A stretch of 64,000 nt of DNA. It comes from Rhodospirillaceae bacterium (GTDB lineage: Bacteria > Pseudomonadota > Alphaproteobacteria > CACIAM-22H2). Of the stretch, positions 1-64,000 are shown in pieces; positions within the stretch are counted from its first letter, which is position 1, and each line of letters begins with the position of its first letter. A program made the translations under genes and the position numbers. The DNA is taken from contig JAIXXA010000132.1 of assembly GCA_027490975.1 (NCBI GenBank), positions 17,253 to 81,252 of the forward strand, given 5' to 3'. The notes beneath the pieces were generated by a model. The model saw only the letters and a program-made list of their open reading frames with translations. It had not been told where the DNA came from and searched no databases.

Positions 1-572
1 TCGAGCACGCGGCGCATCTCGTAGAGTTCGGCGATGTAGGCGCGCGACAGGCCGGGCGCGTACCAGCGCGATTTTCCATCCTTCTTGACCACGCCGAAAC
101 GCTGGAGCCGCACCAGCACGTCGCGCGCAACCGTCCGGCTCACACCGTGGTGGCGCGCGAGATCGCTCTCCACCACGCGCCAGGCGCAGAAAGCCGAGCG
201 CACCACGATCTCGGTTTCCACCTCTTTGTAGATGCGCTCCCAGCTTGCCGCACTGTTCAACTGCACCGGCGCCGACGGGACGCTTGCGGATTTGGGCAAG
301 GCGGCCGCCTCGATCACGACGTAGCCGCGGCCGGCGGCGTGCCGGATCGCGCCCGCAGCTGCGAGCTTTTCCAGGGCATGCCGGACCGGCGCGCGGCTGA
401 TGCCGAACTGGGCTGCGGTACGGGATTCGTAGAGGACCGAACCGGGCGCAAAAGTGCCGTCGGCGATCTGGCGGGTCAGGATTTCGAGCACGCGGGCCTG
501 AAGGCGCGGGGCTGCACCTCGCGTCTTCGCCGTTGCCCGTTCCAAGCGTTTGCCCGCAGCCTTCGCCATCAT
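1..572 (-). CDS. GntR-family (FadR-like) transcriptional regulator, C-terminally truncated by the window edge
   Basis: Minus-strand translation from the ATG at 572 gives MMAKAAGKRLERATAKTRG...RVLEILTRQIADGTFAPGSVLYESRTAAQFGISRAPVRHALEKLAAAGAIRHAAGRGYVV, a typical GntR winged-HTH. The ORF runs off the window start, so it is absent from the ORF track. Its start overlaps the stop of the next SDR gene. Confidence 0.75.
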   Translation of the reverse strand, partial: MMAKAAGKRLERATAKTRGAAPRLQARVLEILTRQIADGTFAPGSVLYESRTAAQFGISRAPVRHALEKLAAAGAIRHAAGRGYVVIEAAALPKSASVPSAPVQLNSAASWERIYKEVETEIVVRSAFCAWRVVESDLARHHGVSRTVARDVLVRLQRFGVVKKDGKSRWYAPGLSRAYIAELYEMRRVL

Positions 573-1336
573 ATCCCCGACGCCAGATAGCCTCCGTCGA
601 CCCGCAGCGTTGCGCCGTTCACGAAACGCGCGGCAGGCGATGCCAGAAAGACGGCCGCACCCACCAGTTCCGACACATCGCCCATTCGCCCCATTGCGCA
701 GCGCCGAATCGCTTCCGCCTTGCGCTCGGGCGGCATCTTGTCGCGATTGAGGTCTGTTAGGAAGAAGCCAGGCGCGATCGCGTTGACCCGGACGCCGCGC
801 GCCCCCCACTCCGCCGCGAGGGTCTGGGTCAATCCCGTCACGGCCCATTTGCTGGCGCAATAGGCGGCCGCGAGCGACCAGCCGGAATGCGCGGCCAACG
901 ACGCGATGTTGATTATCGTCCCGGAGCCGCGCGCCGTCATGCGCGCGCCGAATGCCGTGCAAGCGAAAAACACCGCCTTGACGTTGGTGTCCATAACCGC
1001 GTCGTACTCCGTTTCGTCGACTTCCAGCGCGGGCTTGATCGTCGTGGTGCCCTGGCAGTTGACCAGCACATCGACGGGACCGTGCTCGCGTTCCGCGCGG
1101 TCGGCCAATGCCCGGGCTGCGGCCGGCGCGCGCAGATCGGCGCAGTAGGCGACCGTCGCATCGCCCCCAAGCTCTGCGGCGACGGCGTCGAGCCGTTCGC
1201 GCCCGCGCGCCGCGATCAGCACGCGCGCGCCCGCCGCGCGCATGCCCAATGCGATCGCGCGGCCGATGCCGCTCGACCCGCCGATCACCATGGCGGTGGC
1301 GCCGCCCATCGAAAACGCATCCGTTTTGTCTGTCAT
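569..1336 (-). CDS. SDR-family oxidoreductase (short-chain dehydrogenase)
   Basis: 255-aa ORF with a GGSSGIGRAIA Rossmann motif and the SDR catalytic core (ASKWAVTGLT with YxxxK). High GC3 coding bias. Confidence 0.9.
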   Translation of the reverse strand: MTDKTDAFSMGGATAMVIGGSSGIGRAIALGMRAAGARVLIAARGRERLDAVAAELGGDATVAYCADLRAPAAARALADRAEREHGPVDVLVNCQGTTTIKPALEVDETEYDAVMDTNVKAVFFACTAFGARMTARGSGTIINIASLAAHSGWSLAAAYCASKWAVTGLTQTLAAEWGARGVRVNAIAPGFFLTDLNRDKMPPERKAEAIRRCAMGRMGDVSELVGAAVFLASPAARFVNGATLRVDGGYLASGI

Positions 1337-17019: not shown

Positions 17020-18639
17020 GTGGCCGCAGAAAACGAACTCGGCGAATTCGACTACATCGTCGTCGGCGCAGGTTCGGCGGGCTGCGTGCTCGCCAACCGC
17101 CTGTCGGCCGATCCCGCCAACCGCGTGCTGCTGCTCGAAGCGGGCGGCAAAGACGACTATCTGTGGATCCATATCCCGGTCGGATATCTCTACACGCACG
17201 GCAATCCGCGCGTCGATTGGTGCTTCAAGACAGAAAGCGAGCCGGGCCTCGGCGGGCGCGCCTTGGGCTATCCGCGCGGCAAGGTGCTCGGCGGCTGCAC
17301 GGCCATCAACGGCATGATCTACATGCGCGGCCAAGCCGCCGACTACGACCATTGGCGCCAATTGGGCCTCAAAGGCTGGGGCTGGGACGATTTGCTGCCC
17401 TATTTCAAACGTTCGGAAGACAATGTGCGATTCGCCGACGACGCGCTGCACGGCACGGGCGGCGAAGTGCGCGTCGAAGAGATGCGCTTGTCGTGGGAAA
17501 TTCTCGACGCGTTCCGCGACGCAGCCGCCCAGACCGGCATCCCCAAGATCGACGACTTCAACGGCGGCGACAATTTCGGCTGCGCCTATTTCCAGGTGAA
17601 CCAAAACAAGGGCGTGCGCTGGACCTCGGCCAAGGGCTTCCTGCGCCCGGCGATGAAACGCGCGAATTTGCGCGTGCTCACGCATGCGACCGCGCACGGC
17701 CTCATCCTGGAAGACGGGCGCGTGGCGGGCGTGCGCGTTTCGCACGGCGGCAAAATCCACGCCGTGCGCGCGGCACGCGAAACCGTGCTGGCGGCCGGCG
17801 CTATCGGCTCGCCGCAGCTGCTGCAATTGTCGGGCATCGGCGATCCGGCCGAGCTCGCCAAACACGGCATTGCGTTGCGCCACGAAAGCAAAGATGTCGG
17901 CGCCAATCTGCAGGACCATCTGCAGATCCGCTGCGCCTACAAGGTCCACGGCACCAAGACGATGAACGAACGCGCCAATTCGCTGTTCGGCAAAGCCGCC
18001 ATGGCGCTCGAATACGCGCTGTTCCGGCGCGGGCCGCTGACGATGGCGCCGTCCCAGCTCGGTGCGTTCGCCAAGTCCGGCCCCGACAAGGCGACCGCCG
18101 ATCTCGAATACCATGTGCAGCCTTTGAGCCTCGACCGGTTCGGCGAACCCCTGCACCCGTTTCCGGCCTTCACGGCGTCGGTGTGCAATCTGCGCCCGAC
18201 AAGCCGCGGCCATGTGCGCCTCAAATCGGCGGACCCAGCGGCGGCCCCGGCGATCCAGCCCAACTATCTTTCGACCGACGAAGACAAGCGCATTGCGGCC
18301 GAAGCCATTCGCCTCACACGGCGCATCGTGGCGGCCCCGGCGCTGCAGCGCTTCCGGCCCGAAGAATTTCGTCCCGGCCGCGAGGCCGCGAGCGAAAGCG
18401 AACTCGTGGCGGCGGCGGGCCGCATCGGCACCACGATCTTCCATCCCGTTGGCACGTGCCGCATGGGGGCGGACGCAAACGCCGTCGTCGATGCGCGGCT
18501 GCGCTTGAACGGGCTTTCCGGCCTGCGCGTCGCCGACGCCTCGGTGATGCCGAGCATCACGTCCGGCAACACGAATGCGCCCACGATCGTGATCGCGGAA
18601 AAAGCCGCCGCTATGATCCTTGAGGACTCGCGCGGCTAG
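17020..18639 (+). CDS. GMC-family FAD-dependent oxidoreductase (choline/alcohol dehydrogenase-like)
   Basis: GTG at 17020 with AAGGGAG upstream. FAD motif DYIVVGAGSAGCVLANRL, GGCTAINGMIYMRG, C-terminal GMC signature (HPVGTCRMG...ADASVMP). Confidence 0.9.
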   Translation: MAAENELGEFDYIVVGAGSAGCVLANRLSADPANRVLLLEAGGKDDYLWIHIPVGYLYTHGNPRVDWCFKTESEPGLGGRALGYPRGKVLGGCTAINGMIYMRGQAADYDHWRQLGLKGWGWDDLLPYFKRSEDNVRFADDALHGTGGEVRVEEMRLSWEILDAFRDAAAQTGIPKIDDFNGGDNFGCAYFQVNQNKGVRWTSAKGFLRPAMKRANLRVLTHATAHGLILEDGRVAGVRVSHGGKIHAVRAARETVLAAGAIGSPQLLQLSGIGDPAELAKHGIALRHESKDVGANLQDHLQIRCAYKVHGTKTMNERANSLFGKAAMALEYALFRRGPLTMAPSQLGAFAKSGPDKATADLEYHVQPLSLDRFGEPLHPFPAFTASVCNLRPTSRGHVRLKSADPAAAPAIQPNYLSTDEDKRIAAEAIRLTRRIVAAPALQRFRPEEFRPGREAASESELVAAAGRIGTTIFHPVGTCRMGADANAVVDARLRLNGLSGLRVADASVMPSITSGNTNAPTIVIAEKAAAMILEDSRG

Positions 18640-20459
18640 AACCGCTTTGCGTGCGCGTCGTCAACGGCCGCGACTGCAGCGACCGCGGCTATCGGCAGCT
18701 CGACACGAAAATGCGAACCGTGGCCAGGTATGGAGTGGGCCGATACGCTGCCGCCCATCTCTTTCATGAGACCGGCGACGACGGCTAGACCGAGCCCAGC
18801 CCCGCCGAAGCGCCGCGTATTCCCCGTCTCGACTTGGTGGAACGGCTCAAAAATGCGCGCCAGTTGATCGGACGGAATTCCGATTCCGCTATCGTCAATC
18901 CCGACCGAAACATGGGTACGGCTCTGCGCCAGCACCACGCGGACCTCGCCTTCGTGCGGCGTAAATTTGATTGCGTTCTCGATGAGGTTGACGACCACCT
19001 GGCGGAAAGCGACGGGGTCGCCGAGCGCCAAATCGACCACGTCTTCGCGCAAGAAATCGACCGAAACGTTACGCTTTATCGCGATCGGACGAAGTATACC
19101 AAGGGCCGCTTCGATCTCGATCTTGACGTCGAACGCGACACGAGCAAGGGGCAGATGCCCCTGCTCAAGACGCACCGTATCGAGCAACCGGTTGATGAGT
19201 TCAAGCAGATGCGCACCCGACTGATGGATGTCGCGGACATACTGCGCTTGACGCGGCACAAGTGCCCCGCCGCCAATTCCCAGCTTCAGCATTTCGGTGA
19301 ACCCGATAATGGCATTGAGCGGTGTGCGCAACTCGTGCCCAAGCCTGCCGAGAAACTCGCCTTTCGCCGCATTCGCGCGCGCCAAGGCACTTGCCTGCGC
19401 GCGCAGATCGCGGTTTGCGGAACTTAAGCGTCGCGTGCGGACGAGCACGGCGCGCTTGAGCGCGCGCCGCTCGCCCAGCACGCGCGCCACGGCAAAGCCG
19501 GCCAGCATAGAAAGTACAATGCCCAACAAGCCAATCCAGAACGGCTCCGACTGCTCGAGAGCCTCCGAACTCGTCCGAACGCGCCAGAGGCGCCCCGCAA
19601 AATCGATACGGCGCTCGACGATATCTTCTTCCGGCGAGCCGCCCATTGCGAGCACAAGCCTGGGTGCTGTGCCGTTCGGAACGGTTCCGATATCCTCGAT
19701 CAGCAGCTTGAGACTGGTGCCCGAGACCGAACGCAAGGAGGGCACCAGCAGCCGTTCGATCGTGATTCCCATCGCAACCAATCCGAACGGACGGCCATTG
19801 GCGACGACAGGATGCAGCACCAGTACGCCGGGATTGCCGGTGTCAGCATCCTGCGTCAGCACCACGGGGGCCGAGGCTTGCGGGCGGCCTGTCGCAAAAG
19901 CGCGTTCGCCTGCCGCACGCCGATCAGCATTAGAATAAAAGTCGAAATTGTAGACTCTGGCATTGCCGATAGGTGGCTCGACAAGTACGACCGGTGCATA
20001 AACGTCGCGCGATCCCTCTGGCCACGGCAGGAACGTGGGATAACCGAGTGCCGCTCGCGATGTATCGCCTGCCTTTTCGGCAACGAGCTCGGCCAGTTGC
20101 GCGCCATCGACCAGTGGCGCAAAGGCCAATGCGCGGACCGAAGGAAGCAGATCTAGAATCCGCAATGTCGAGACGAAGTCGCGATAGGCGACCGCATCCG
20201 TCTGCGGGACGGCCCCGAGTTTTGCGGCAACCGACGACTGAAAGGCGAGCGCCATGTCGATTTCGCGCTGGATGCTGAGAACCACGCGGTCGGCGACGCG
20301 TTCTGCGCGCGTCCGTTGTTCCCTGGCAGCGACCGCAAGAAGGTCGGCATAGAGCCACCCAGTCAGCAAAAGGCCGACGGCGGCGGCGATGCCCCCCCAC
20401 AAGCCGGGGTGGTTCTGCCATCGCCGAAACGGTCGCCGCAAGAAATCGAGCGCCGCCAT
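18636..20459 (-). CDS. Sensor histidine kinase with periplasmic CHASE domain
   Basis: 607 aa: N-terminal TM, extracytoplasmic CHASE-like region (YNFDFYSNADRR...), second TM, HisKA (LGHELRTPLNAIIGFTEML) and HATPase_c (GGAGLGLAVVAGL). 4-bp convergent overlap with the GMC gene. Confidence 0.85.
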   Translation of the reverse strand: MAALDFLRRPFRRWQNHPGLWGGIAAAVGLLLTGWLYADLLAVAAREQRTRAERVADRVVLSIQREIDMALAFQSSVAAKLGAVPQTDAVAYRDFVSTLRILDLLPSVRALAFAPLVDGAQLAELVAEKAGDTSRAALGYPTFLPWPEGSRDVYAPVVLVEPPIGNARVYNFDFYSNADRRAAGERAFATGRPQASAPVVLTQDADTGNPGVLVLHPVVANGRPFGLVAMGITIERLLVPSLRSVSGTSLKLLIEDIGTVPNGTAPRLVLAMGGSPEEDIVERRIDFAGRLWRVRTSSEALEQSEPFWIGLLGIVLSMLAGFAVARVLGERRALKRAVLVRTRRLSSANRDLRAQASALARANAAKGEFLGRLGHELRTPLNAIIGFTEMLKLGIGGGALVPRQAQYVRDIHQSGAHLLELINRLLDTVRLEQGHLPLARVAFDVKIEIEAALGILRPIAIKRNVSVDFLREDVVDLALGDPVAFRQVVVNLIENAIKFTPHEGEVRVVLAQSRTHVSVGIDDSGIGIPSDQLARIFEPFHQVETGNTRRFGGAGLGLAVVAGLMKEMGGSVSAHSIPGHGSHFRVELPIAAVAAVAAVDDAHAKRF

Positions 20460-20466
20460 GCAGAAC

Positions 20467-20790
20467 TCAAACCGCCCGGATTTTCGTCAGGAAACGCTCG
20501 ACGTCGCCGCGCAGGGCTTGCGCCTGCCCCGTCACCGTCTCGGCCGCCACGCGCGCGCGGTCGGCCGTCATGCGCGTTCCGGCGGCAGACTGCGTGACGC
20601 CCCCGACATTCGACGACATGTCCTGCGTGCCGACGGCGGCCTGCTGGACATTGCGCGAATCGGCGTAATCGCCCCATGCCCCCGCCGCGTGCATGACAAG
20701 CCTGCCGAACACGAGCAGCGAGAATACGGCGACTATTGAGACCAGTGAATTTCGCACGCCAGCGGTGCGATGAAGAGTAACAATCGCCAT
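20467..20790 (-). CDS. Small MCP-like protein or pseudogene remnant (one TM plus the C-terminal signalling-domain tail of a methyl-accepting chemotaxis protein)
   Basis: 107 aa. Residues 45-107 (VQQAAVGTQDMSSNVGGVTQSAAGTRMTADRARVAAETVTGQAQALRGDVERFL) resemble the extreme C-terminus of MCPs. Lies 8 nt upstream of the CHASE kinase start. Confidence 0.45.
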   Translation of the reverse strand: MAIVTLHRTAGVRNSLVSIVAVFSLLVFGRLVMHAAGAWGDYADSRNVQQAAVGTQDMSSNVGGVTQSAAGTRMTADRARVAAETVTGQAQALRGDVERFLTKIRAV

Positions 20791-39419: not shown

Positions 39420-40532
39420 ATGGATTGCATTTCCGACTGGCTGGTCGCCGAGGGTCCGCACGTGGCAGACATGGGCGCGCTGCTGAGCGGCTTGGCCGAG
39501 CGGCTGCTGGCGGCCGAGATCCCCGTGGCGCGCATGGCAACCATGATCGAAACGCTGCATCCGCGCTTCATCGGCGCGATGCGCGTCTGGGAACCGAACG
39601 GCGACGTGAAGCTGCGCCGCGCCACGTTCGACGACCCGGTCATAACGGCGGCCCCCAAACGCTTCACGATCGACGAGCTGCAGGAAACCGGCGATTGGGT
39701 CGAATTCAAGCTCGACGATCCGCGCATCGACGCCTACGACCTGCTGCCGCGCCTGGCACAGGAAGGCCACACGCATTACCTGCTGATGCCGCTCCGGTTC
39801 CGCGAAGGCCCGCTGCAGGGGATGTCGTTTTCCACCAAACAGGCGGGCGGCTTCACGGCCGCGCAGAGCCGTGCCATCCGCACGCTGCAGCCGAGCCTGG
39901 CCTTGACCGCCAACGTGATCGCCACGCACACGATGTGGCGCGAGGTGCTGAAGGCCTATGTCGGCGAAGTGCCGGGCGATTTGATTCTGCAAGGGGCGAT
40001 ACGGCGGGCGGACGTGCGCCGCGTCCAAGCCGCTTTGATCATGACCGACATGCGCGGCTTCACGCGGCTTGCCAATGCGAGCACGCCCGAGGCGACGGTC
40101 GCCGCCCTCAACGCCTATCTCGACAATGTGGTGCCCGCGATCGCGGCGGCGGGCGGCGAAATCCTCAAATTCATCGGCGACGGCGTGCTGGCCACGGTCC
40201 CATTCAACGATGCCGGGAACGCTGCGGCGGCCTGCGCAGCGGCTTTTGCGGCAGCCCAAGCGATTCGCCAGGCCGCCCCCAATGTCGGCATCGCTTTGCA
40301 TGTGGGCGAGGTCGCGTTCGGCAATATCGGGGCGGGCGACCGGCTCGACTTCACGATCATCGGGCGCGACGTCAATCTGCTCGCGCGCATCGAAAAAATC
40401 TGCGGCGAATTCCACGAAGACATCGTGATGTCGCAGGCTTTTGCCGCTTTGTGCGGTGCGCCAGCGCGCCTCGTCACGCGCTTCACGCCCAAAGGCTTCG
40501 ACGGCGAAGAGGCCGTGTTCGCACCGGCCTAA
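39420..40532 (+). CDS. Class III adenylate/guanylate cyclase with N-terminal sensory domain of unknown type
   Basis: C-terminal CHD domain (IMTDMRGFTRL...KFIGDGVLA...GEVAFGNIGAGDRLDFTIIGRDVNLLARIE). The N-terminal roughly 190 aa are unassigned. Confidence 0.85.
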   Translation: MDCISDWLVAEGPHVADMGALLSGLAERLLAAEIPVARMATMIETLHPRFIGAMRVWEPNGDVKLRRATFDDPVITAAPKRFTIDELQETGDWVEFKLDDPRIDAYDLLPRLAQEGHTHYLLMPLRFREGPLQGMSFSTKQAGGFTAAQSRAIRTLQPSLALTANVIATHTMWREVLKAYVGEVPGDLILQGAIRRADVRRVQAALIMTDMRGFTRLANASTPEATVAALNAYLDNVVPAIAAAGGEILKFIGDGVLATVPFNDAGNAAAACAAAFAAAQAIRQAAPNVGIALHVGEVAFGNIGAGDRLDFTIIGRDVNLLARIEKICGEFHEDIVMSQAFAALCGAPARLVTRFTPKGFDGEEAVFAPA

Positions 40533-55493: not shown

Positions 55494-56291
55494 ATGGAAC
55501 AAAGCATTCTGAAACGTCCGGGCGCGGACCTGCACTATTGGAGCTTCGGATCGGGACCGGCTCTCGTTTTTGCGCACGGGCTCGGGGGCAACGCACTGTC
55601 CTGGTGGCAGCAGATCCCATACTTCCAGCGCAGATGGCGCTGCATCACGTTTTCGCATCGCGGCTTCGCACCTTCGACGGTAGCAAGCGGCCTGCCTGAT
55701 CCCGCCGATTACGCGGGCGACCTTGCGGCCCTGGTCGACCATCTCGGTCTCGGCGATGTGGCGATCGTCGCCCAATCGATGGGCGGCTGGGGTGCGGTCG
55801 AATTCGCGCTGCAGGCGCCGAAGCGCGTGCGCGCGATCGTGCTGGCCGCCACGAGCGGAACGTTCGACGCGCGTGCGGCCGATCCAAAGGCTTTTGCGGC
55901 ATGGGAGGTTTGGGCCGCCGCCGAACGCCTGCGCCTCAACGCCGCTTCGATCCATCCGGCGGCAGGCGAAGCCATGGCCCGGGATCGGCCCGACCTCAAA
56001 TTCCTCTACAGCAGCATCGACGCGATGTCGCAGGGGCTCGACAAAGAAGCCCTGCGCAAGCGCCTGTTTGCCGCCCGCGTGCGCCCGCTTGGCGATGCCG
56101 CGCGTTTGCCCATGCCCGTGCTCGTCGCGTGCGGGGAAAAGGACCCGGTCTTCGCCTCGCCCCTGGGGGCTGCGTTTGCTGCCGCTTTCCCGCAAGGCCG
56201 GCATATTGAATTTGCAAAAGCCGGGCATTCGGCCTATTTCGAAATCGCGCCCGAATTCAATCGCCGGATAGAGGCTTTCCTCGCCCCATGA
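55494..56291 (+). CDS. Alpha/beta-fold hydrolase
   Basis: 265 aa. HGLGGN oxyanion region, nucleophile elbow AQSMGG, C-terminal GHSAY (His). Confidence 0.85.
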   Translation: MEQSILKRPGADLHYWSFGSGPALVFAHGLGGNALSWWQQIPYFQRRWRCITFSHRGFAPSTVASGLPDPADYAGDLAALVDHLGLGDVAIVAQSMGGWGAVEFALQAPKRVRAIVLAATSGTFDARAADPKAFAAWEVWAAAERLRLNAASIHPAAGEAMARDRPDLKFLYSSIDAMSQGLDKEALRKRLFAARVRPLGDAARLPMPVLVACGEKDPVFASPLGAAFAAAFPQGRHIEFAKAGHSAYFEIAPEFNRRIEAFLAP

Positions 56292-56989
56292 AAGCGCCGA
56301 TCTTCTACAGCAAACCGGTCCCGCTCGCGGCCGAAATCCACGGCACCAAGCGCTTTCGCGCGATCGCCGATTTCCGCTTCGCGCGCGCGGCCAACGCGGT
56401 TCCGCTTGGGGCCAGCGAAATGGGGATTGCAGCGCGCCACTATCCGCTCGTCTTCGCTGCAACCGAGCCCGGCGGCATTGCCGCGATCCTGGGCGTGCAG
56501 ACGGGCGAAAACCTTTTCGTCGATGCCGACGGCAAATGGGCGCCGGACGTCTACGTACCGGCTTTCGTGCGCCGCTATCCGTTCGCCTTCGCCGAGCAGG
56601 ACGACAAACTGATCTTGTGCATCGACGAAGCGGCGAACGCGCTCGACGACGCAGAAGGGCCGTGGCTGTTCAACGTCGACGGGACCACGACCGGGTTCAC
56701 CGACCAGGTCGTGCAGTTCAACCGCGAATTCCAGATCCAAGCGCGAAGTGCCGCCGAATTTGCGGCTGCCGCCGCCGCCGCGGGCTTGCTCGCCGAAAAC
56801 CGAGCGGAGATCGAAACCCGCAGCGGCAAAAAGATGACGCTCGGCGGGTTCCGCGTGATCGACCGCGCCAAATTCGAAGCGCTGTCCGACGAAACCTTCC
56901 TCGATTGGCGCAAGCGCGGCTGGCTCGACATGGCGGCAGCGCACTTCCTGTCGTTCCATTCCTGGCAGAATCTGATCGCGCGCGCCTGA
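56288..56989 (+). CDS. SapC-family protein
   Basis: 233 aa with ATGA overlap with the hydrolase. NAVPLGASEMGIAARHYPLVF...YVPAFVRRYPFAF matches the SapC family (PF07277). Confidence 0.7.
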   Translation: MKAPIFYSKPVPLAAEIHGTKRFRAIADFRFARAANAVPLGASEMGIAARHYPLVFAATEPGGIAAILGVQTGENLFVDADGKWAPDVYVPAFVRRYPFAFAEQDDKLILCIDEAANALDDAEGPWLFNVDGTTTGFTDQVVQFNREFQIQARSAAEFAAAAAAAGLLAENRAEIETRSGKKMTLGGFRVIDRAKFEALSDETFLDWRKRGWLDMAAAHFLSFHSWQNLIARA

Positions 56990-56992
56990 CGT

Positions 56993-58951
56993 TTACTTCT
57001 CGGCCATGGCGAAGACTTCGCCTGTCTCGCCTTCGCGCAGGCGCTCGAGATGGTATTCGGCAAGCGCATCGTCGGGATAGCGCCGGCACAGATCCTCGAA
57101 CGCCGCGAGTGCTGCCGGATCCGCGCTTTTCATGAGTTCGAACGCGGCCAGATAGAGCGTCGTGTTTTCGTCTGCGGCACGTGCACCGGTCAGCGGTTCG
57201 AACACGTGGATGGGTTCGGACTTGCCTTTGACAATCACGCCGCCGACCTTACGGCAGGGAACTTCGGGCGAGGCGTCGCGCGTCTGCTGCGTGATCAGGA
57301 TGCGCGTGCCGAAATACTTGTTGAGACCTTCGAGGCGGGCGGCCGTGTTCACGGCGTCGCCGAGCGCTTTGTATTCGTAGCGGTCGAGCGAGCCGAAATT
57401 GCCCACGTTCGCTTCGGCCGTGTGCACGCCGATGCGCGTCACGCCGAAATCGACGCCCTTGGCGCGCTCTTCGGCGCGGAAGCGTTCGGAGAACCGGTCG
57501 ATGTCGAGTGCAGCCTGCAAAGCGCGCTTGGCGTGGTCGGGCTGCTCGCGCGGCGCGTTGAACATCGCGTAGATCGCGTCGCCCGTGAATTGGTTGATGG
57601 TGCCGCCGAACTTCCAGATCTCGCGGCAGCCGCCGTCGAGATAGCGGTTCAGGATATCGGCAAGGTGTGCGGCTTCGAGCTTTTCGGACAGGGTCGTGAA
57701 ACCCTGCACGTCGGTGAAGATCAGCGACATCGGCCGGCGGCTTGCCGACAGGTCGAGCTTTTTGGGATCCTTGACGATCTCCTGCAGCAGTTCGCCCGAC
57801 ACGTATTTGCTGAAAACGCCTTGGATGAATTTCTTCTGCTGGCGTTCTGCGCGACCCGACCACGCATCCGACAGCCAAAGCGCAATGCCCAAGGCCACCA
57901 CCGGCTCGATCAGCGGCAGCAGCAGTTGCCTGTCGCGGAACAGATAGAAGGCGCCGACCCACAGCGCGGCGATCGCGACGACGGCCCCGCTCGCGCGCAG
58001 CCAGATCGGCACGCCCGTATTGCCGAGCGCTGCCCCGATCAAGGCGAGCAGCGCCAAGGTCGTAACGAGCGGAACCAGCGCCCGATCCTCGGGCGCAACA
58101 CGGCCCTCGAGCAGCTGGGCCAGAATATGCGCCTGGATCACGATCCCGGCGATGGTGCCCTCCCGCCCTTCGCGGGCGACCGCAAACGGCGTGCGATGGC
58201 GGTCGGTCAGCGACAGATCGGCCCCCAGCAGCACGATCTTGCCGGCGATCCAAGCGTCGGGCAGCACAGGCACGGCATGCGAGGGGAAAATGCGGAAGGA
58301 CGGCGTCTGCGCATCGGGCTGGCCGCGCCACGCGATGATGCGCCGCGTTTCGGGAATCGCCGCCCCAAGCCGCTCGGCAAGGCGCGCGGCGACGTTGGGC
58401 AGGCGCGTGCCGTCGTGGCCTTGGCGCGGCTGGGGCACAAAACGGATCGTGCCGTCGCGAATGTCGGGCTCGATGTCGGCGAGGCCCCGCCATTCGGGCA
58501 CCACGAATTCGTCGAGATAGGCGCGCTGCTCCTCGGTCACGTAGAGCGGGGAGTCGCTGTAGCTGATCGCAAACGGAATCTTGAGGGCGGCCAGGACCGC
58601 GCGCAGTTCGTCGTCTTTGTCTTCTTCGGTTTCCTGGTCGAGCAGCACGTCGAGCAGCAGGGCTTTGGCACCTTTGGCAGCCAGCGCTTCGATCGTCTTC
58701 GCCAGAAACCGACGGTCGATCGGCGAGCGGTACGGAAACGAAGACAGCGTTTCTTCGTTGATGGCGGCCACGACGATGTCGGGATGCTGTGGCTCGGGTG
58801 CCGTCACGGTCGCGATGCGGTAGTCGGTCGTCCAGCGTTCGGCCGTGCCCACGAACGGAAACAGCCGGAAGATACCGAACGCGACCGTCGCGGCCACAAC
58901 CGCAATCGCAACCGAAATGCCGATGCGGCGAAAAACGAGTGCGGCACTCAT
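56993..58951 (-). CDS. CHASE2-sensor class III adenylate/guanylate cyclase
   Basis: N-terminal TM, periplasmic CHASE2-like domain of about 300 aa, three TM helices, then CHD cyclase domain (SLIFTDVQGFTTL...KFGGTINQFTGDAIYAMF...NTAARLE). Start at MSAALVFRR (58951); an alternative ATG lies at 58978. Confidence 0.85.
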   Translation of the reverse strand: MSAALVFRRIGISVAIAVVAATVAFGIFRLFPFVGTAERWTTDYRIATVTAPEPQHPDIVVAAINEETLSSFPYRSPIDRRFLAKTIEALAAKGAKALLLDVLLDQETEEDKDDELRAVLAALKIPFAISYSDSPLYVTEEQRAYLDEFVVPEWRGLADIEPDIRDGTIRFVPQPRQGHDGTRLPNVAARLAERLGAAIPETRRIIAWRGQPDAQTPSFRIFPSHAVPVLPDAWIAGKIVLLGADLSLTDRHRTPFAVAREGREGTIAGIVIQAHILAQLLEGRVAPEDRALVPLVTTLALLALIGAALGNTGVPIWLRASGAVVAIAALWVGAFYLFRDRQLLLPLIEPVVALGIALWLSDAWSGRAERQQKKFIQGVFSKYVSGELLQEIVKDPKKLDLSASRRPMSLIFTDVQGFTTLSEKLEAAHLADILNRYLDGGCREIWKFGGTINQFTGDAIYAMFNAPREQPDHAKRALQAALDIDRFSERFRAEERAKGVDFGVTRIGVHTAEANVGNFGSLDRYEYKALGDAVNTAARLEGLNKYFGTRILITQQTRDASPEVPCRKVGGVIVKGKSEPIHVFEPLTGARAADENTTLYLAAFELMKSADPAALAAFEDLCRRYPDDALAEYHLERLREGETGEVFAMAEK

Positions 58952-58967
58952 GCGCGCCTGGGCGCGC

Positions 58968-59684
58968 TCACGGAGCAACGGCGCGCGCCAGCGCGCGCGC
59001 TTGGTCGTTGCAGCCCTTTTCGATCATCCAAGCCGCCTGGAGCAGCGGATCGCTGAAGCTTGCAGGCATGCGGTGGATGACGACGTTGGCCGCATTGCCG
59101 CCGACGTCGAACACGTAGCCGCGCCCGTCGGCAAGCGGGATGCGTGCGGGCAGGGCAAATCGGTCGCTTTCGGCCGGCCACTGGCCGCGCGCACGCCAGC
59201 TGCGGTCGGCCGGTTCGATCGCGAGCCCCGTCGCCTCGGCAAAACGCGGCCCCCACAGCACGGGCGTCGCGTCGCCCGCAATGCAGCGCGCACCCGAGCG
59301 GCTCACATCGAGCACCCACGGATCGGGCAGTTCGGCCGCGTCGCCGCCCGCGCGCACGACACCGAGTGCGGCCGTGCCGGCGACGCGCTGGTTCATCAGA
59401 TTCTTGAGCGCGTCGCCGACATTGGCGCCGCCCGCCGCCGCCTGCCCCGGGGCGGGCGCTTCTTCGTAAGGGCCGCGCAGCTTCAAAGAGCGCCCGTCGG
59501 CCGCAATCAGCGTAAGGCGCTGGCCGGCGGCAAGCACCAGCACTTTGGTGCCGTCGACCTTGGCGCCGGGGGCAAGTTCGATGCCCCTGGCTTCGACCAC
59601 GACAAGCTCGTTCGCCGTCGCCGCCCCGGCGAGGCCGACGAAAAGCGCGATGGCGGTACAAAACGATCGGGCAAAACGACGCAT
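58968..59684 (-). CDS. Hypothetical periplasmic protein (signal peptide; possibly FecR-like partner of the CHASE2/CHAT module)
   Basis: Start MRRFARSFCTAIALFVGLAGAATA at 59684. The remainder of the 360-aa track ORF is an artefact. Sits between the CHAT and CHASE2-cyclase genes with 10- and 16-nt gaps. Confidence 0.6.
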   Translation of the reverse strand: MRRFARSFCTAIALFVGLAGAATANELVVVEARGIELAPGAKVDGTKVLVLAAGQRLTLIAADGRSLKLRGPYEEAPAPGQAAAGGANVGDALKNLMNQRVAGTAALGVVRAGGDAAELPDPWVLDVSRSGARCIAGDATPVLWGPRFAEATGLAIEPADRSWRARGQWPAESDRFALPARIPLADGRGYVFDVGGNAANVVIHRMPASFSDPLLQAAWMIEKGCNDQARALARAVAP

Positions 59685-59694
59685 AACTGCGAGT

Positions 59695-62600
59695 TTAGCT
59701 TGGATTGCGTGCAGCCGGCAATGGTTCGGCGCTGCGGGCCGCCGCACCGTCGCCCTGAAGCACGAATGCGCCCCAGAAGAACGGATGGGCGCTGGCGGCC
59801 TCGTCGGCCAGCGCCATCTGCGATGCCGCAAGGGCGCGCGCAATGCCGCCGCGCGTATTGCCGCCGAGCCGGTCGAACATGCCCGTGGTGAGCTGCACGG
59901 TCTGCTGCGAGGGCACTTGCCAGTGCGTGACCAGAAGGCCGCGGGCCCCTGCAAAGAAAAACGCTTCCGCCAAACCCGACAGCGATTCGCCGCCAAGCCG
60001 CGCGCCCGAGGCCGCCGTGTTGCAGGCCGAGAGCACGACGAGATCTGCATCCAGGCGCATCGCGGCGATCTCGCTTGCTTCGAGGAGCCCGTCTTCGGCC
60101 GGGTCGGCCACGTCGGCGGCTTGTGCGCTCAGGGCAAGGCCCGGCTGCGCTTGGCAGCGCAATTCGCCGGGCAGCAGCCCGTGCGTGGCGAAATACAGAA
60201 CGCGATAACGCTCGAGCTGCTGGCGGCGCAGATTGGCGGCCGTGGCATTCGCACCCAGCAGCAGCGCGTCTGGCCCGGCATTGAGCGAAGCCGCCACGCG
60301 GCGCACCTCGTCGGCGGTTTCCGGCAAGGGGGCAAGCGCGCGGATCATCGCTGCGGGCACGGCGCCGTCCGAGCGGCACGCGTCGGCAAGCGCACCGAGC
60401 CCGTTGGCAGCGCCGCCGCCTTGCGGTGCGCCGCCAAAATTCGGATTGGCGAGCGCAAAAAACGGCTCGGGGGCGGCCGGGCGAGCCGCCAGCGTGCGAA
60501 GGTTTAGGAAGGCGCGCACGCTCGGCGGGCTTGCGGTCGCAACGCGGCGCGCCAGCCACGCCGTCTGCCGGTAATCGCCCGCCACTGCCGCCTGCGGCGG
60601 CGCTTGCGTCGCCAAGACGGCAAAAGGCAGGCTCGCAAGTGCGCCATTGGCGACGACGAACAATTGATCGACTTCCGCCAGCGCCGCATCGAACGGCCCC
60701 AGCAAAGTGCGGTAAAGCCGGTGCGACAGCGCCACGTCGAACGGGGCCACGTCGCTGCGGCCGCTGATCTCGAAGGCGGCGCGCAGGATGCGCACCTGGT
60801 CGGCGAGCTGCTCTTCGTCGGCCGCCAAGCGAGCGGCCTGGATCCCGTCGCGGCGCACGAGGAATGCAAACGCGCCGTCGGGCCCGGTCAAATAGAAGAC
60901 GAGCGCCTCGCGCGGTCCCAAGGCGGCGCGCAGTTCGTCCGGCGCGACAGGCTGCGGCGAGACGAGGCGCGAGAAGCCGGGGGCGGCAGATTCAATATCG
61001 GCTTCGAGTGCGGCGGCTTTCGCCGTCGCGGCGTTGAGGTCGTCGCGCAGCTTGGCCACGCGTGCGGCATCGCGCAGCGCCGTCGGCTTGCCGAGCTCGC
61101 CGGCAAGATCGAGGCCCAGACGGTCGCGGCTGCGCAGCGCGTCTTCGTGCGCGCCCACGACGGGCGCCAGACGCGCATCGTCGCGCGCGAGGCGCTGGGC
61201 GGTGCGCGCAACGGCGCGCCCGGCCGTGCCGTCGCGCATCAATTGGGCGACCGCGAACATTTCGGCATGCAAGGCCGCGGCTGCCGCCGGATCGCGCTTG
61301 GCTTGCGCATCGGCCGCCTCGAGGAACGGGCGCACTTGAGCGAAGGTCAGCGTGCGCACCGGCACTTGCGCGAGCACGATGCGGAACGCATCGCGGTAGT
61401 TCTCGATCGCGGCTGCATAGCGCCCGTCGCCGCTTTGCTCGCGCGCGAGCGTCATCAGGCTTTGCGCGACCGGCCAGCCGCCGCCGAACACGCGCAAGGT
61501 CTGCTGCGCCGAGGCCGCCAGCAGGCGCTCGGCATTGACGAAATCGCCGCGCGCACCGAGCACTTGCCCGAGCTGCGACAAGGCGCGCGGCTGCCACCAG
61601 GGCGGCAGGCCCGGAATGCTGTCGATGATGCGGCGCGCTTCGAGGGCGGCGGACTCGGCCCCCGCAAGATCGCCGGTTTCGAGCGCCATCGACGAGGCGA
61701 AAAGAAGTGCGTGCGCGAGTTCGGCCTGCAGCACCACGGCGCTGCCGAAAATCGAGCCGCCGCCGCCGGCATCGAGGCTCGCCGGGATGCCGCCGCCCAG
61801 CGTTTCGATCAAGGCGCGCCGCCGCTGGATCGTGTCGCGCGCACTCGCAAGGGCCCGCTCGTACTGGCGCTGGTTGGCGGCATGCAGCGCGAGAAAGGTC
61901 TGCAGGCGCGGATATTCGCCGGGGTCGGGCGAGCGCAAGATCAGCGCTTCGGCACGCTGGAACAACGCATCGGCCTCCTCGAACCGGCCTTGCGCCGATA
62001 CTTCGAGCGCAAGCGAGCCCATCGTCGTCCCCGTGCCCGGATGGTCGGGGCCGAGTGCCGCCGTCTGCAGAGCGAGCGAGCGCCGATAGGCAGCCTCGGC
62101 CCCCGCATTGTTGCCGACGCTGTTGTAGAGCCGCGCAAGCTCGACAAGATCCTGATAGCCGCCGACCGCATCGCCGCTTGCGACCGCCGCGCCGAACGTC
62201 GCCTCGAGATGGCCGCGCAGCGCCGCGACGTCGAACGGCCCCGGTGCGGCATCCCCCAACGACAGGCGCATCGCTTCGACCAAAGCCGGCAAGGCGGCAG
62301 GCTGGCCCTCGGCGACCGCCAGGCGATTGCCCGATACGATCGCCGCCGCAACAAGCGGCCAGCCGCCGTCTTTGAGCGAACAGGCGGCGACCATCAACGT
62401 CGTGTCCGCGCCGACCCATTCGGGCGACTTGCACGCCGCACGCAAGCCGAGCGTGCGGATCGGCGCGCTCGTCTCGAACCCGCGCGTCAGAAACGCCCGG
62501 CGCGCATCGGGCTCTTGCGGCACGTTGCGCAATTCCGCCAGAGCCTGCGCCGAGCCGTAGACGCGCGGGCTGTTGGCGCAGAAAACTTCGCGCAGGTCGG

Positions 62601-62748
62601 GCTGCAGGCGGTTGGGCACTGCCCGGCACGCTTCGCCCGACAAGGCCGTGCCGACCGGCGTTTCGGGGCCTTGCCCCCCGCGCATCGCTTGGCAACCGGC
62701 CAAGGCGGCCGCGAGCACGCAGACCGCGATTTGCGGAAAGAGCCTCAT
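59695..62748 (-). CDS. TPR-repeat CHAT-domain (caspase-like peptidase) lipoprotein
   Basis: Start MRLFPQIAVCVLAAALAGCQ (lipobox LAGC) at 62748. TPR region. C-terminal CHAT domain with His (YFATHG) and Cys (LVVLSACNTAASG) catalytic dyad. Confidence 0.85.
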   Translation of the reverse strand: MRLFPQIAVCVLAAALAGCQAMRGGQGPETPVGTALSGEACRAVPNRLQPDLREVFCANSPRVYGSAQALAELRNVPQEPDARRAFLTRGFETSAPIRTLGLRAACKSPEWVGADTTLMVAACSLKDGGWPLVAAAIVSGNRLAVAEGQPAALPALVEAMRLSLGDAAPGPFDVAALRGHLEATFGAAVASGDAVGGYQDLVELARLYNSVGNNAGAEAAYRRSLALQTAALGPDHPGTGTTMGSLALEVSAQGRFEEADALFQRAEALILRSPDPGEYPRLQTFLALHAANQRQYERALASARDTIQRRRALIETLGGGIPASLDAGGGGSIFGSAVVLQAELAHALLFASSMALETGDLAGAESAALEARRIIDSIPGLPPWWQPRALSQLGQVLGARGDFVNAERLLAASAQQTLRVFGGGWPVAQSLMTLAREQSGDGRYAAAIENYRDAFRIVLAQVPVRTLTFAQVRPFLEAADAQAKRDPAAAAALHAEMFAVAQLMRDGTAGRAVARTAQRLARDDARLAPVVGAHEDALRSRDRLGLDLAGELGKPTALRDAARVAKLRDDLNAATAKAAALEADIESAAPGFSRLVSPQPVAPDELRAALGPREALVFYLTGPDGAFAFLVRRDGIQAARLAADEEQLADQVRILRAAFEISGRSDVAPFDVALSHRLYRTLLGPFDAALAEVDQLFVVANGALASLPFAVLATQAPPQAAVAGDYRQTAWLARRVATASPPSVRAFLNLRTLAARPAAPEPFFALANPNFGGAPQGGGAANGLGALADACRSDGAVPAAMIRALAPLPETADEVRRVAASLNAGPDALLLGANATAANLRRQQLERYRVLYFATHGLLPGELRCQAQPGLALSAQAADVADPAEDGLLEASEIAAMRLDADLVVLSACNTAASGARLGGESLSGLAEAFFFAGARGLLVTHWQVPSQQTVQLTTGMFDRLGGNTRGGIARALAASQMALADEAASAHPFFWGAFVLQGDGAAARSAEPLPAARNPS

Positions 62749-63260
62749 GCGCCGGGAGCCGGCGGCAGGCGCCGGCGCGTGTAGTCGCACAGCATGTTCA
62801 TGAGCGCCTTCATCATCGAATCCTTGAGACCGTACGATTCGACCACGTGCGGCGGCGGCAGCATCATGCGCGCATGCCGGTCGGCGGACGTTTCGTCGAG
62901 CGGCAAACCGGCCTTGGTGCGCGAATCGAACGGCACGGTCGAGCGGCAATACTCCATGAGCGACGTCATCAAGCGCACGATATCGGGCTCAAGCGACATC
63001 ATGCGCTGGGTGAGCTGCTGGCTGTTGACGACGATGCAGACCGTGTCTTCGCCCGCGACCGCCGTCGCCATGCGCAGGCCGCCGTCGATGATCGCCATTT
63101 CGCCGAACAAGGCGCCCGGCCCCAGGCTTGCCACGATGATCGGCGCATCCACCCCTTTTTTGAGGATAAGGACTTTGCCCTTTTCGACCAAAAAAGCTTC
63201 GGCGCCGATTTCGCCTTCCTTGAAGATGATTTTTGCCTTGGCGTAGGTGCGTTTGAACAT
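62745..63260 (-). CDS. Standalone cyclic-nucleotide-binding (cNMP/CAP-effector) domain protein
   Basis: 171 aa. Phosphate-binding cassette FGEMAIIDGGLRMATAVA. No HTH. Stop overlaps the CHAT start (ATGA). Confidence 0.8.
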   Translation of the reverse strand: MFKRTYAKAKIIFKEGEIGAEAFLVEKGKVLILKKGVDAPIIVASLGPGALFGEMAIIDGGLRMATAVAGEDTVCIVVNSQQLTQRMMSLEPDIVRLMTSLMEYCRSTVPFDSRTKAGLPLDETSADRHARMMLPPPHVVESYGLKDSMMKALMNMLCDYTRRRLPPAPGA

Positions 63261-63265
63261 GGCGG

Positions 63266-63967
63266 CTAGAAGTCGCCCTTGCGGATCTGGAACACGTCGG
63301 GATTCTGCGGATCGCGAATGTACGAAACTTGCAGCGTCGGCGGCACGGTCGGGCGCTGGCCTTCGGGGGCTGCCACGCCGGCGAGGGCCGCGATCGTTCG
63401 CCGGCCTTGCGTGTCGTCGCCGCGGAAGACCAGCACGGCCCCGTCGGGCTGGGCCAAATTGACCGCGACCGTGTCGGCTTTGTAGCCCACGGAAACGAGA
63501 TGGGTCTGCAGCATGCGCGCCAGATCGACGGCCGTGGCAGGCGCGAGCTGCGGATTGGCGGCCCCGCCGAAGGTGACGGTCACCTGCACAAGCTGGCGCG
63601 AGCGGAAGCCAATGACGTAGGCGACCTGCGCGGGGCCGCTGCCGGGCAGCAGGTCGGGCACGGTGATCGCCAGAATCTGCGTGCGCTCGACCCCGTTTTC
63701 GACGGTCTCGATCCGGTCGGCGGGAATCGAAAAATCGCGCCGAATGGCTTGGCGCACCTGGTCCGGCGTCATGCCGAACAAGGCCGAGCGGAAGCCGGTC
63801 AGGCGAAATTCAGGCTCGGCCGCGGCGGGTGTTCCCGTCGCAGGCGGCGTTGCCGGGCGATTGGGTGCGGGGGCCTGCGCAAGAACGGCGCCGGCACCAA
63901 ACGCCAGCCCGCAAAACGCGACCAAAACGCCGACAATGGCGCGGATACGCTGAATTTTTCTTCCCAT
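63266..63967 (-). CDS. Hypothetical secreted protein
   Basis: 233 aa. Signal peptide MGRKIQRIRAIVGVLVAFCGLAFGAGAVLA and Pro/Ala/Thr-rich linker. First gene of the minus-strand cluster, 5 nt upstream of the cNMP-binding gene. Confidence 0.6.
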   Translation of the reverse strand: MGRKIQRIRAIVGVLVAFCGLAFGAGAVLAQAPAPNRPATPPATGTPAAAEPEFRLTGFRSALFGMTPDQVRQAIRRDFSIPADRIETVENGVERTQILAITVPDLLPGSGPAQVAYVIGFRSRQLVQVTVTFGGAANPQLAPATAVDLARMLQTHLVSVGYKADTVAVNLAQPDGAVLVFRGDDTQGRRTIAALAGVAAPEGQRPTVPPTLQVSYIRDPQNPDVFQIRKGDF

Positions 63968-64000
63968 TTGCCTACCCCATTTCTACCAAATACCGCCGTT

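Follow-up and report, generated by a model that had tools for sequence, protein, structure and literature searches.

A CHASE2 receptor-cyclase operon with a TPR-CHAT lipoprotein is a lineage-specific version of a module found beside two-partner secretion genes

What brings a receptor cyclase, a stand-alone nucleotide-binding protein and a caspase-like lipoprotein together in one operon? This question is raised by five minus-strand genes, here called g1 to g5, that lie near the end of a 64,000-nucleotide stretch of contig JAIXXA010000132.1 from a Rhodospirillaceae bacterium (positions 17,253 to 81,252 of the contig; hereafter the window). In operon order they encode a small exported protein (g1), a stand-alone cyclic-nucleotide-binding (CNB) protein (g2), a lipoprotein with tetratricopeptide repeats (TPR) and a CHAT domain (g3), a second small exported protein (g4) and a CHASE2 receptor nucleotidyl cyclase (g5). 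A first-pass annotation, made from the window's sequence alone, had read these genes as a self-contained circuit in which cyclic AMP (cAMP) or cyclic GMP (cGMP) made by g5 binds g2, and g2 in turn activates the CHAT protease. Our comparison with related genomes revealed that the five genes are a lineage-specific version of a widespread module that is located beside a two-partner secretion (TPS) system, and we slightly favour a reading in which this module carries a signal from the envelope into the cytoplasm.

To delimit the module, the CHAT protein was used to scan one genome per species, which yielded 78 loci, and the neighbourhoods were read from tblastn searches with all five proteins combined with gene calls from metagenome contigs. 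Labels such as L001 denote loci or contigs of relatives. The full order g1-g2-g3-g4-g5 was found in 16 related loci, with CHAT proteins that are 57-92% identical, and only in a clade of Rhodospirillales metagenome-assembled genomes (MAGs) labelled Tagaea, Telmatospirillum, Azospirillum and similar. Since the order is the same in all 16 loci and their outer flanks differ (SapC, MarR, DctPQM, ABC transporters), the five-gene block is a conserved unit beyond chance. A wider set of about 40 loci in Alpha- and Betaproteobacteria retains the triad CHAT-g4-CHASE2 cyclase in the same order. This triad occurs without g1 or g2 in Sphingomonadales, Acetobacteraceae, Burkholderiaceae and others, at 32-49% identity, and about 25 lineages outside the clade have CHAT, g4 and the CHASE2 cyclase with no gene for a cyclic nucleotide monophosphate (cNMP)-binding protein. 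A family hidden Markov model (HMM) that does detect the Sinorhizobium meliloti cyclase CyaK found no CHASE2 gene beside the more distant CHAT homologues, which come from Bacteroidota, Acidobacteriota and other groups (L037-L078).

The genes next to this triad point to secretion. In every clade locus an opposite-strand gene begins about 100-210 nt upstream of g1 and encodes an ShlB/FhaC-type outer-membrane protein (TpsB), which in L001 carries POTRA_2 (7.7e-20), ShlB (2.4e-17) and an RGY loop motif; in Sphingomonadales and Burkholderiaceae, TpsB directly follows the cyclase on the same strand. With only 33 nt left between the g1 start and the end of the window, the operon unit is probably truncated there, and judging from the relatives a divergent TpsB gene is expected just beyond. 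In distant relatives CHAT is preceded, or TpsB followed, by a gene for a TpsA exoprotein: the TPS domain matches at 6e-32 in L012, and TPS-domain matches also stand beside the module in L013, L018, L022, L025, L029 and L032-L036. Some versions have a giant protein (~4460 aa or >2750 aa) directly upstream of CHAT, and on a Sphingobium plasmid the order is CHAT-cyclase-g4-like-TpsB-giant. No TpsA was found within ~10 kb of the module in the clade relatives. From these gene orders the ancestral unit is reconstructed as TpsB, TpsA, CHAT, g4 and the CHASE2 cyclase; on this reconstruction the window's clade no longer has TpsA, carries TpsB in inverted orientation and has gained g1 and g2 by insertion. 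Contrary to the first proposal, the circuit is not self-contained, since the module is embedded in a TPS locus.

The domains and signals of the five proteins indicate on which side of the inner membrane each would act. The CHAT domain of g3 scores 178.8 bits (gathering cut-off 24; PF12770). N-termini were covered for 22 distinct orthologues, 18 of which carry a lipobox of the form [LA][AS][GA]C, among them the distant L012, L013, L024 and L089. The conservation of the lipobox implies that g3 is exported and agrees with the lipoprotein originally predicted. A Protein Data Bank search with the g3 sequence returned only TPR matches (kinesin light chain) and no solved CHAT relative, and the catalytic dyad was therefore assigned by motif; the LSACNT-type Cys occurs in 49 of 49 distinct orthologues scanned and the FATHG His in 42 of 49, so that the dyad presupposed by the protease assignment is present and g3 is a predicted cysteine protease with an intact His/Cys dyad. 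For g5, CHASE2 scores 93.9 bits against a gathering cut-off of 26.3 (PF05226, residues 23-305), and hydropathy peaks at residues 10-28, 291-309, ~316-338 and 343-361 predict the classical CHASE2 topology of one plus three transmembrane segments (TMs), which places the sensor in the periplasm as first annotated. Both g1 and g4 begin with an N-terminal hydrophobic signal sequence, and hydropathy analysis found no hydrophobic export signal in g2. By these predictions g3, g4, g1 and the CHASE2 domain of g5 face the periplasm, and the catalytic domain of g5 and g2 are cytoplasmic.

The cyclase of the window's clade also has an unusual active site. The best solved relative of its catalytic domain is the class IIIb cyclase CyaB of P. 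aeruginosa (3r5g, 5e-30), and residues D414, D458, N535 and R539 align with those of CyaB 3r5g and CyaC 1wc0. They are kept in 40 orthologues and in an alignment of 150 further sequences, the nearest 50%-cluster representatives of the g5 catalytic region that HMMER retrieved when all 1.84 billion cluster representatives were searched exhaustively. The base-specifying pair is Gln454/Lys528 in 16 of 16 clade sequences and in none of the 24 others of the 40-orthologue alignment, all of which have Lys/Thr or, in S. meliloti CyaK, Lys/Ser. Thus g5 shows neither the adenine-specifying arrangement (Lys before the second metal Asp; Thr or Asp before Asn) nor that of guanylate cyclases (Glu paired with Cys, Gly, Ser or Ala). 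Among the 150 nearest representatives, the pairs are K/T in 107, R/R in 12, R/T in 5, E/[AGS] in 7, D/x in 8, N/T in 3 and T/T in 2, the rest being other minor pairs; Q/K was found in none, the guanylate-cyclase-like E/[AGS] pairs are confined to those 7, and about 29% carry non-canonical pairs while all 150 keep D, D, N and R. Because the Gln/Lys pair is clade-specific, cAMP should not be assumed to be the product of g5, which may be a different nucleotide. We only tentatively suggest, as a possibility with the balance against it, that the clade's g5 has been re-specified, so that the module would signal via cGMP or a non-purine cNMP to a private receiver with an unusual Arg-Met-Ala cassette. 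More broadly, the retrieved cyclases, mostly of CHASE2-receptor length, may represent an unexplored reservoir of nucleotide specificities. The window encodes a second class III cyclase at 39420-40532 (+), a soluble protein of 370 aa that is 28% identical to the g5 catalytic domain and has the canonical Lys/Thr pair (ILKFIGDG ... FTIIGRDVN); hence at least one cyclase of the ordinary adenylate type is encoded in this genome alongside the Gln/Lys enzyme.

The gain of g2 coincides with the switch to Gln/Lys. Its cNMP_binding domain scores 64.3 bits over residues 4-87, and the phosphate-binding cassette FGEMAIIDGGLRMATA (FGEMAI..RMATA) is intact and invariant across the clade, with a Met after the Arg instead of Ser, Thr or Ala. 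The C-terminal tail ...KALMNMLCDYTRRRLPP (KAL.NMLC[DE]YTRRRLPP) is likewise invariant or highly conserved. Neither Pfam nor NCBIfam revealed a helix-turn-helix (HTH) or other output domain, in agreement with the first description of g2 as a receiver lacking an effector, and the match to the NCBIfam CRP model covers only the CNB part (residues 4-102, 22.8 bits against a cut-off of 266). The g2 family comprises ~25 clusters, all of at least 62% identity. In the cultured relative Niveispirillum cyanobacteriorum TH16, whose locus is of the TpsA type, the gene of the orthologous cyclase is immediately followed by one for a small CNB protein that differs from g2 (Pfam 4e-18); this protein has an Arg-Ser-Ala cassette and is paired with a K/T cyclase. 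Since the pairing of g5 with g2 is universal in the clade and a separate CNB protein stands beside the Niveispirillum cyclase, a producer/receiver pair, as proposed from the window alone, is credible on the evidence of gene content. Two further CNB matches were rejected as receivers or cyclase partners: the one near the Sphingorhabdus locus is part of an unrelated 816-aa redox protein, and a 203-aa relative (P0170) is not located beside a cyclase. In L092, one of the clade relatives, a gene for a cNMP_binding-EAL protein lies 7 kb past the downstream end of the module (19739-20711), which hints at cross-talk between cyclic mononucleotides and cyclic di-GMP (c-di-GMP) in these organisms.

How could such a module work? 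We lean, by a small margin of belief, towards outside-in envelope sensing, from TpsB, CHAT and g4 via CHASE2 to a cyclic nucleotide and g2. The operon would then be what the window shows of a signalling module of six genes that leads from the envelope to the cytoplasm. An event at the surface or in the periplasm would be relayed through TpsB and periplasmic CHAT and g4, possibly with g1, to the CHASE2 domain; most lineages would in this way sense the state of their exoprotein TpsA, and the TpsA-less clade a cue received by TpsB or g1. The relay probably includes a proteolytic step, because the His/Cys dyad is kept in nearly all orthologues scanned, and the CHAT protease would accordingly count as an input component and not as an output. 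CHASE2 would then switch the cyclase, g2 would read the cyclic nucleotide, and the conserved tail of g2 would contact a partner. This reading is supported by two precedents discussed below, the NsrA-dependent CHASE2 cyclases of S. meliloti and the partner of a Burkholderia CHASE2 kinase.

Several points weigh against outside-in sensing. The direction of signalling is not readable from sequence, and an inside-out flow fits the same anatomy. Interactions, protease substrate and cyclase product are all hypothetical, TpsB lies outside the window and is inferred from relatives, and the fold matches of g1 and g4 are weak and generic. The change from K/T to Q/K, the loss of TpsA and the gain of g1 and g2 all fall on one branch and hence amount to one event, not to replicated co-evolution. 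Moreover, in L039 (1-3253), from a betaproteobacterial MAG, CHAT, g4 and TpsB follow one another without an intervening cyclase gene, and in a Rhodobacterales MAG (L030, 1-9269) a type I secretion system (T1SS) ABC transporter and HlyD are encoded directly upstream of CHAT, with g4 located 3 kb downstream of CHAT past two metabolic genes. Going by these two loci, CHAT and g4 may primarily serve secretion rather than sensing.

If the signal ran from inside to outside, as in the Lap system of Pseudomonas, the cNMP state would act through the cyclase, or through g2 bound to it, to alter CHASE2, which would sequester or release the CHAT protease; the targets would be TpsA in most lineages and g1, g4 or TpsB in the window's clade. 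CHAT and g4 indeed travel with giant-exoprotein secretion, be it TPS or T1SS (L039, L030), even where the cyclase is missing, which recalls the Lap system, where LapG acts on LapA and CdrA. The translational coupling of g2 to g3 would suit this scheme as well, and it would rescue the original idea that the nucleotide controls the protease, but across the membrane and indirectly. The S. meliloti receptor Clr is reported to form a complex with a cyclase (PMC10463352), a precedent for contact between receptor and cyclase. However, CHASE2 is known only as an input domain, the one studied cyclase context being outside-in (PMC7529298), most lineages lack a dedicated CNB protein, and Pfam found no LapD- or LapG-like domain in the five proteins; we regard inside-out control as unlikely, although it is the foremost rival. 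The variant loci L039 and L030 would also be expected if there were no signalling link at all, that is, if CHAT and g4 were maturation or quality-control factors of TPS, as their association with TpsB in L039 and with T1SS genes in L030 might suggest, and the CHASE2 cyclase were independent and merely co-transcribed. This is less probable still, given that in ~40 loci from two classes the cyclase gene is tightly spaced and either stands between those of g4 and TpsB or comes straight after g4, and that the set persists in the window's clade despite the loss of TpsA.

The direct circuit of the first-pass annotation, in which g2 loaded with cAMP or cGMP activates CHAT, drew on the adjacency of g2 and g3 and their ATGA overlap, and its logic resembles that of the cyclic-oligonucleotide-activated CHAT proteases of defence systems. 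The conserved CHAT lipobox and the lack of an export signal in g2 nevertheless put the two proteins in different compartments, and with the inner membrane between them the step from binding protein to protease is topologically excluded unless the lipobox is non-functional. It is also phyletically unnecessary, as most lineages, including most genomes that keep CHAT-g4-cyclase, lack g2. Since the triad is conserved elsewhere without g1 and g2, g2 appears to be a late clade-restricted addition and not a regulator of the protease. In PADLOC, g3 has no match and the matches of the cyclase and of the CNB protein are generic, and we consider the direct circuit very improbable. The likeness in logic to phage defence proved equally generic. 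Anti-phage defence of the Pycsar or CBASS type, with a cyclase and a nucleotide-sensing effector, could claim the matches of g5 to the PADLOC PycC models (5e-24) and of g2 to the CNB part of PycTIR (7e-5), yet control cyclases score as well or better on PycC: K/T orthologues and the soluble cyclase of the window reach 82-101 bits, compared with 83 for g5. As g2 has no effector domain (no TIR or TM fusion), the cyclase is a membrane receptor, and the neighbours are housekeeping genes with no other defence matches and none for g1, g3 or g4 in PADLOC, a defence function is hardly conceivable.

Positions of the operon, its genes and the predicted functional sites in the window
Feature	Window position	Strand	Residues	Description	Evidence
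g1	63266..63967	(-)		233-aa exported protein; clade-specific; first gene of the operon	
g2	62745..63260	(-)		171-aa cytoplasmic stand-alone cyclic-nucleotide-binding protein (predicted)	Pfam cNMP_binding 1e-17
g3	59695..62748	(-)		1017-aa TPR-CHAT lipoprotein (predicted)	Pfam TPR_12 2e-20, CHAT 2e-52
g4	58968..59684	(-)		238-aa exported protein, novel family, core component	
g5	56993..58951	(-)		652-aa CHASE2 receptor nucleotidyl cyclase	Pfam CHASE2 1.5e-26, Guanylate_cyc 5e-14
TATTTG	63987..63992	(-)		-10-like half of promoter-like motif, upstream of g1	conservation only
g3 lipobox Cys19	62692-62694	(-)	19	L-A-G-C19, then Gln	
g3 TPR region			~200-460		
g3 CHAT domain	59749-60729	(-)	674-1000		Pfam PF12770
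g3 catalytic His856 (predicted)	60181-60183	(-)	856		motif FATHG
g3 catalytic Cys909 (predicted)	60022-60024	(-)	909		motif LSACNT
g5 TM1			10-28		
g5 periplasmic CHASE2	58037-58885	(-)	~29-290	position given for the Pfam match, residues 23-305	Pfam
g5 three TMs			within 291-361		
g5 cytoplasmic class III catalytic domain	57212-57733	(-)	407-580		
g5 catalytic residues			D414, D458, N535, R539		
g5 base-specifying Gln454	57590-57592	(-)	454		
g5 base-specifying Lys528	57368-57370	(-)	528		

The description of five tightly packed minus-strand genes was borne out in its open reading frame coordinates and in all junctions. As read from the sequence, g1 and g2 are separated by 5 nt, the g3 start overlaps the g2 stop as ATGA, and the gaps between g3 and g4 and between g4 and g5 are 10 nt and 16 nt. 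Pfam likewise confirmed the domains first assigned, namely cNMP_binding in g2, TPR and CHAT in g3, and CHASE2 and cyclase in g5; a FecR domain, which had also been considered, is present in neither g1 nor g4. NCBIfam has no model for g1, g3, g4 or g5. An alignment with three relatives (L001, L005 and L092) revealed a kept motif, TTGCCG-17 nt-TATTTG, upstream of g1, of which the window retains only the -10 half, the -35 half falling past the window end. Inside the operon, a consensus scan found promoter- and terminator-like sites at no more than the shuffled expectation, a scan that is itself uninformative. On the other side of g5, a SapC-family gene at 56288-56989 (+) (Pfam 3e-58) is convergent with g5, and the two stop codons are 3 nt apart. 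A gene of this family adjoins the 3′ end of the cyclase in many relatives (L001-L005, L007, L008, L012, L026), and in L012, a distant locus of the TpsA type, it comes after the cyclase with both genes on one strand; it may be functionally linked to the module.

The two small exported proteins match no Pfam or NCBIfam family. The g4 family comprises 78 clusters, all annotated as hypothetical and none with a Pfam domain, and Cys134 and Cys225 are invariant. A confident AlphaFold2 (AF2) model of g4, with a predicted local distance difference test score (pLDDT) of 84.8, starts with a small beta domain at the N-terminus; this is followed by a helix, then by an Ig/FN3-like sandwich and, at the C-terminus, by two helices. 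FecR (PF04773) gave no match at E<=0.01 for g1 or g4 and none at E<=1 in 41 members of the g4 family. The homologues of g1 form 60 clusters, again all hypothetical. The signal peptide of g1 is followed, at about residues 23-47, by a disordered linker rich in Pro and Ala and then by a tandem helix plus four-strand domain (model pLDDT 82.4), and weak, generic fold matches of this model might point to a BLIP/BamE-like periplasmic protein. One distant g1 homologue sits outside any such module. The idea that g1 is a remnant of TpsA was discarded: the hhalign probability is 0.4%, no TPS domain was found in g1, and tblastn gave no support.

Two variations in gene content were seen among relatives. 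In the lineage with the ~4460-aa giant upstream of CHAT, the gene directly after the cyclase, in the position that TpsB takes in other lineages, encodes a conserved protein of 208 aa that matches no Pfam family (L079, 12761-13387, and L080-L084). On an Azospirillum ramasamyi plasmid (L098; NZ_CP029832.1, 339788-359518), a CHASE2 cyclase that is 32% identical has different envelope partners, namely two DUF4384 proteins, an OmpA-family protein and a SUMF1/EgtB/PvdO-family protein, with a Crp/Fnr regulator 4 kb away. This locus fits the view that, as a rule, CHASE2 receptors act together with periplasmic proteins encoded beside them.

CHASE2 cyclase signalling itself is already known; what is new here is a partner set for it, together with a clade-specific receiver and a specificity switch. 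Our literature searches found no paper mentioning both CHASE2 and the CHAT domain, and the matches for TPS combined with cyclase and CHAT were not relevant. A defined set of periplasmic partners, conserved in ~40 relatives, makes the input mechanism of CHASE2 directly testable. The module also links the two-partner secretion of giant exoproteins to cyclic-nucleotide signalling and could thus offer a route for sensing surface contact or the state of secretion. Furthermore, a Gln/Lys cyclase with an effector-less receiver provides a compact system for studying specificity changes in class III cyclases and the function of stand-alone CNB proteins. If g5 were indeed re-specified, the clade would have a second-messenger channel that is insulated and takes its input from an envelope sensor dependent on the protease.

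Several characterised systems share parts of this arrangement. The nucleotide-activated CHAT proteases of type III CRISPR systems (SAVED-CHAT, Csx29), which are cytoplasmic and go with a SAVED or Cas7-11 partner, differ from g3, for which Pfam found no SAVED domain and PADLOC no match; moreover, g3 carries a lipoprotein signal. The Pseudomonas Lap system (LapD/LapG/LapA-CdrA) is similar in logic only, with a periplasmic cysteine protease, a nucleotide-signalling protein of the inner membrane that has a periplasmic domain, and a giant adhesin. Its proteins are not homologous to those of the window, none of the five having a GGDEF, EAL or LapG-type Pfam match. In the Lap system the nucleotide is c-di-GMP, signalling is inside-out, and the adhesin is secreted by T1SS or TPS. 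In Bordetella, the two-partner secretion pair FhaC/FhaB uses a lipoprotein protease, the subtilisin SphB1, for processing. Like this system, relatives of the window encode a TpsB with POTRA_2, a giant TpsA whose TPS domain is N-terminal and an envelope lipoprotein protease. Unlike it, their protease is a CHAT protein with the caspase fold, the CHASE2 cyclase and g4 are integral to the module, and TpsA is missing in the window's clade.

Closer parallels are provided by nucleotide-signalling systems with accessory envelope proteins. In Rhodospirillum centenum, the cGMP system gcyA/gcyB/gcyC-cgrA requires 'hypothetical' non-catalytic proteins, encoded beside the receptor gene, for cyclase function (PMC4681086, PMC10187061). 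As described, it resembles the window's module in being a Rhodospirillales cyclic-nucleotide system with accessory proteins; its receptor CgrA, however, is a CRP-type regulator with an R-T cassette, while the cassette of g2 reads R-M and the protein lacks an HTH. In Burkholderia, an exported LysM-FecR partner is encoded directly upstream of a CHASE2 histidine kinase, at a gap of 10 nt (PMC5192318). The pair g4-g5 likewise has a small exported protein immediately upstream, in the same position and spacing class. The Burkholderia operon differs in that the partner has a FecR domain, which g4 lacks, the output is a histidine kinase, and neither CHAT nor TPS is present. The closest characterised system is NsrA/CyaK/Clr of S. 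meliloti. There, NsrA, an outer-membrane barrel protein, is required for the CHASE2 cyclases CyaK and CyaD1/D2 to respond to a proteinaceous signal with a rise in cAMP (PMC7529298, PMC13001267). CyaK differs from g5 in its base-specifying pair, Lys/Ser compared with Gln/Lys, its receptor Clr, a transcription factor, has the HTH that is missing from g2, and no CHAT, g4 or TpsB homologue was found within 9 kb of cyaK. Nevertheless, CyaK is ~30% identical to g5 over CHASE2 and the catalytic domain, and the family CHASE2 HMM matches it at 1.5e-19. Like the window's module, the S. meliloti system comprises a CHASE2 cyclase, an outer-membrane barrel partner and a CAP-type receiver.

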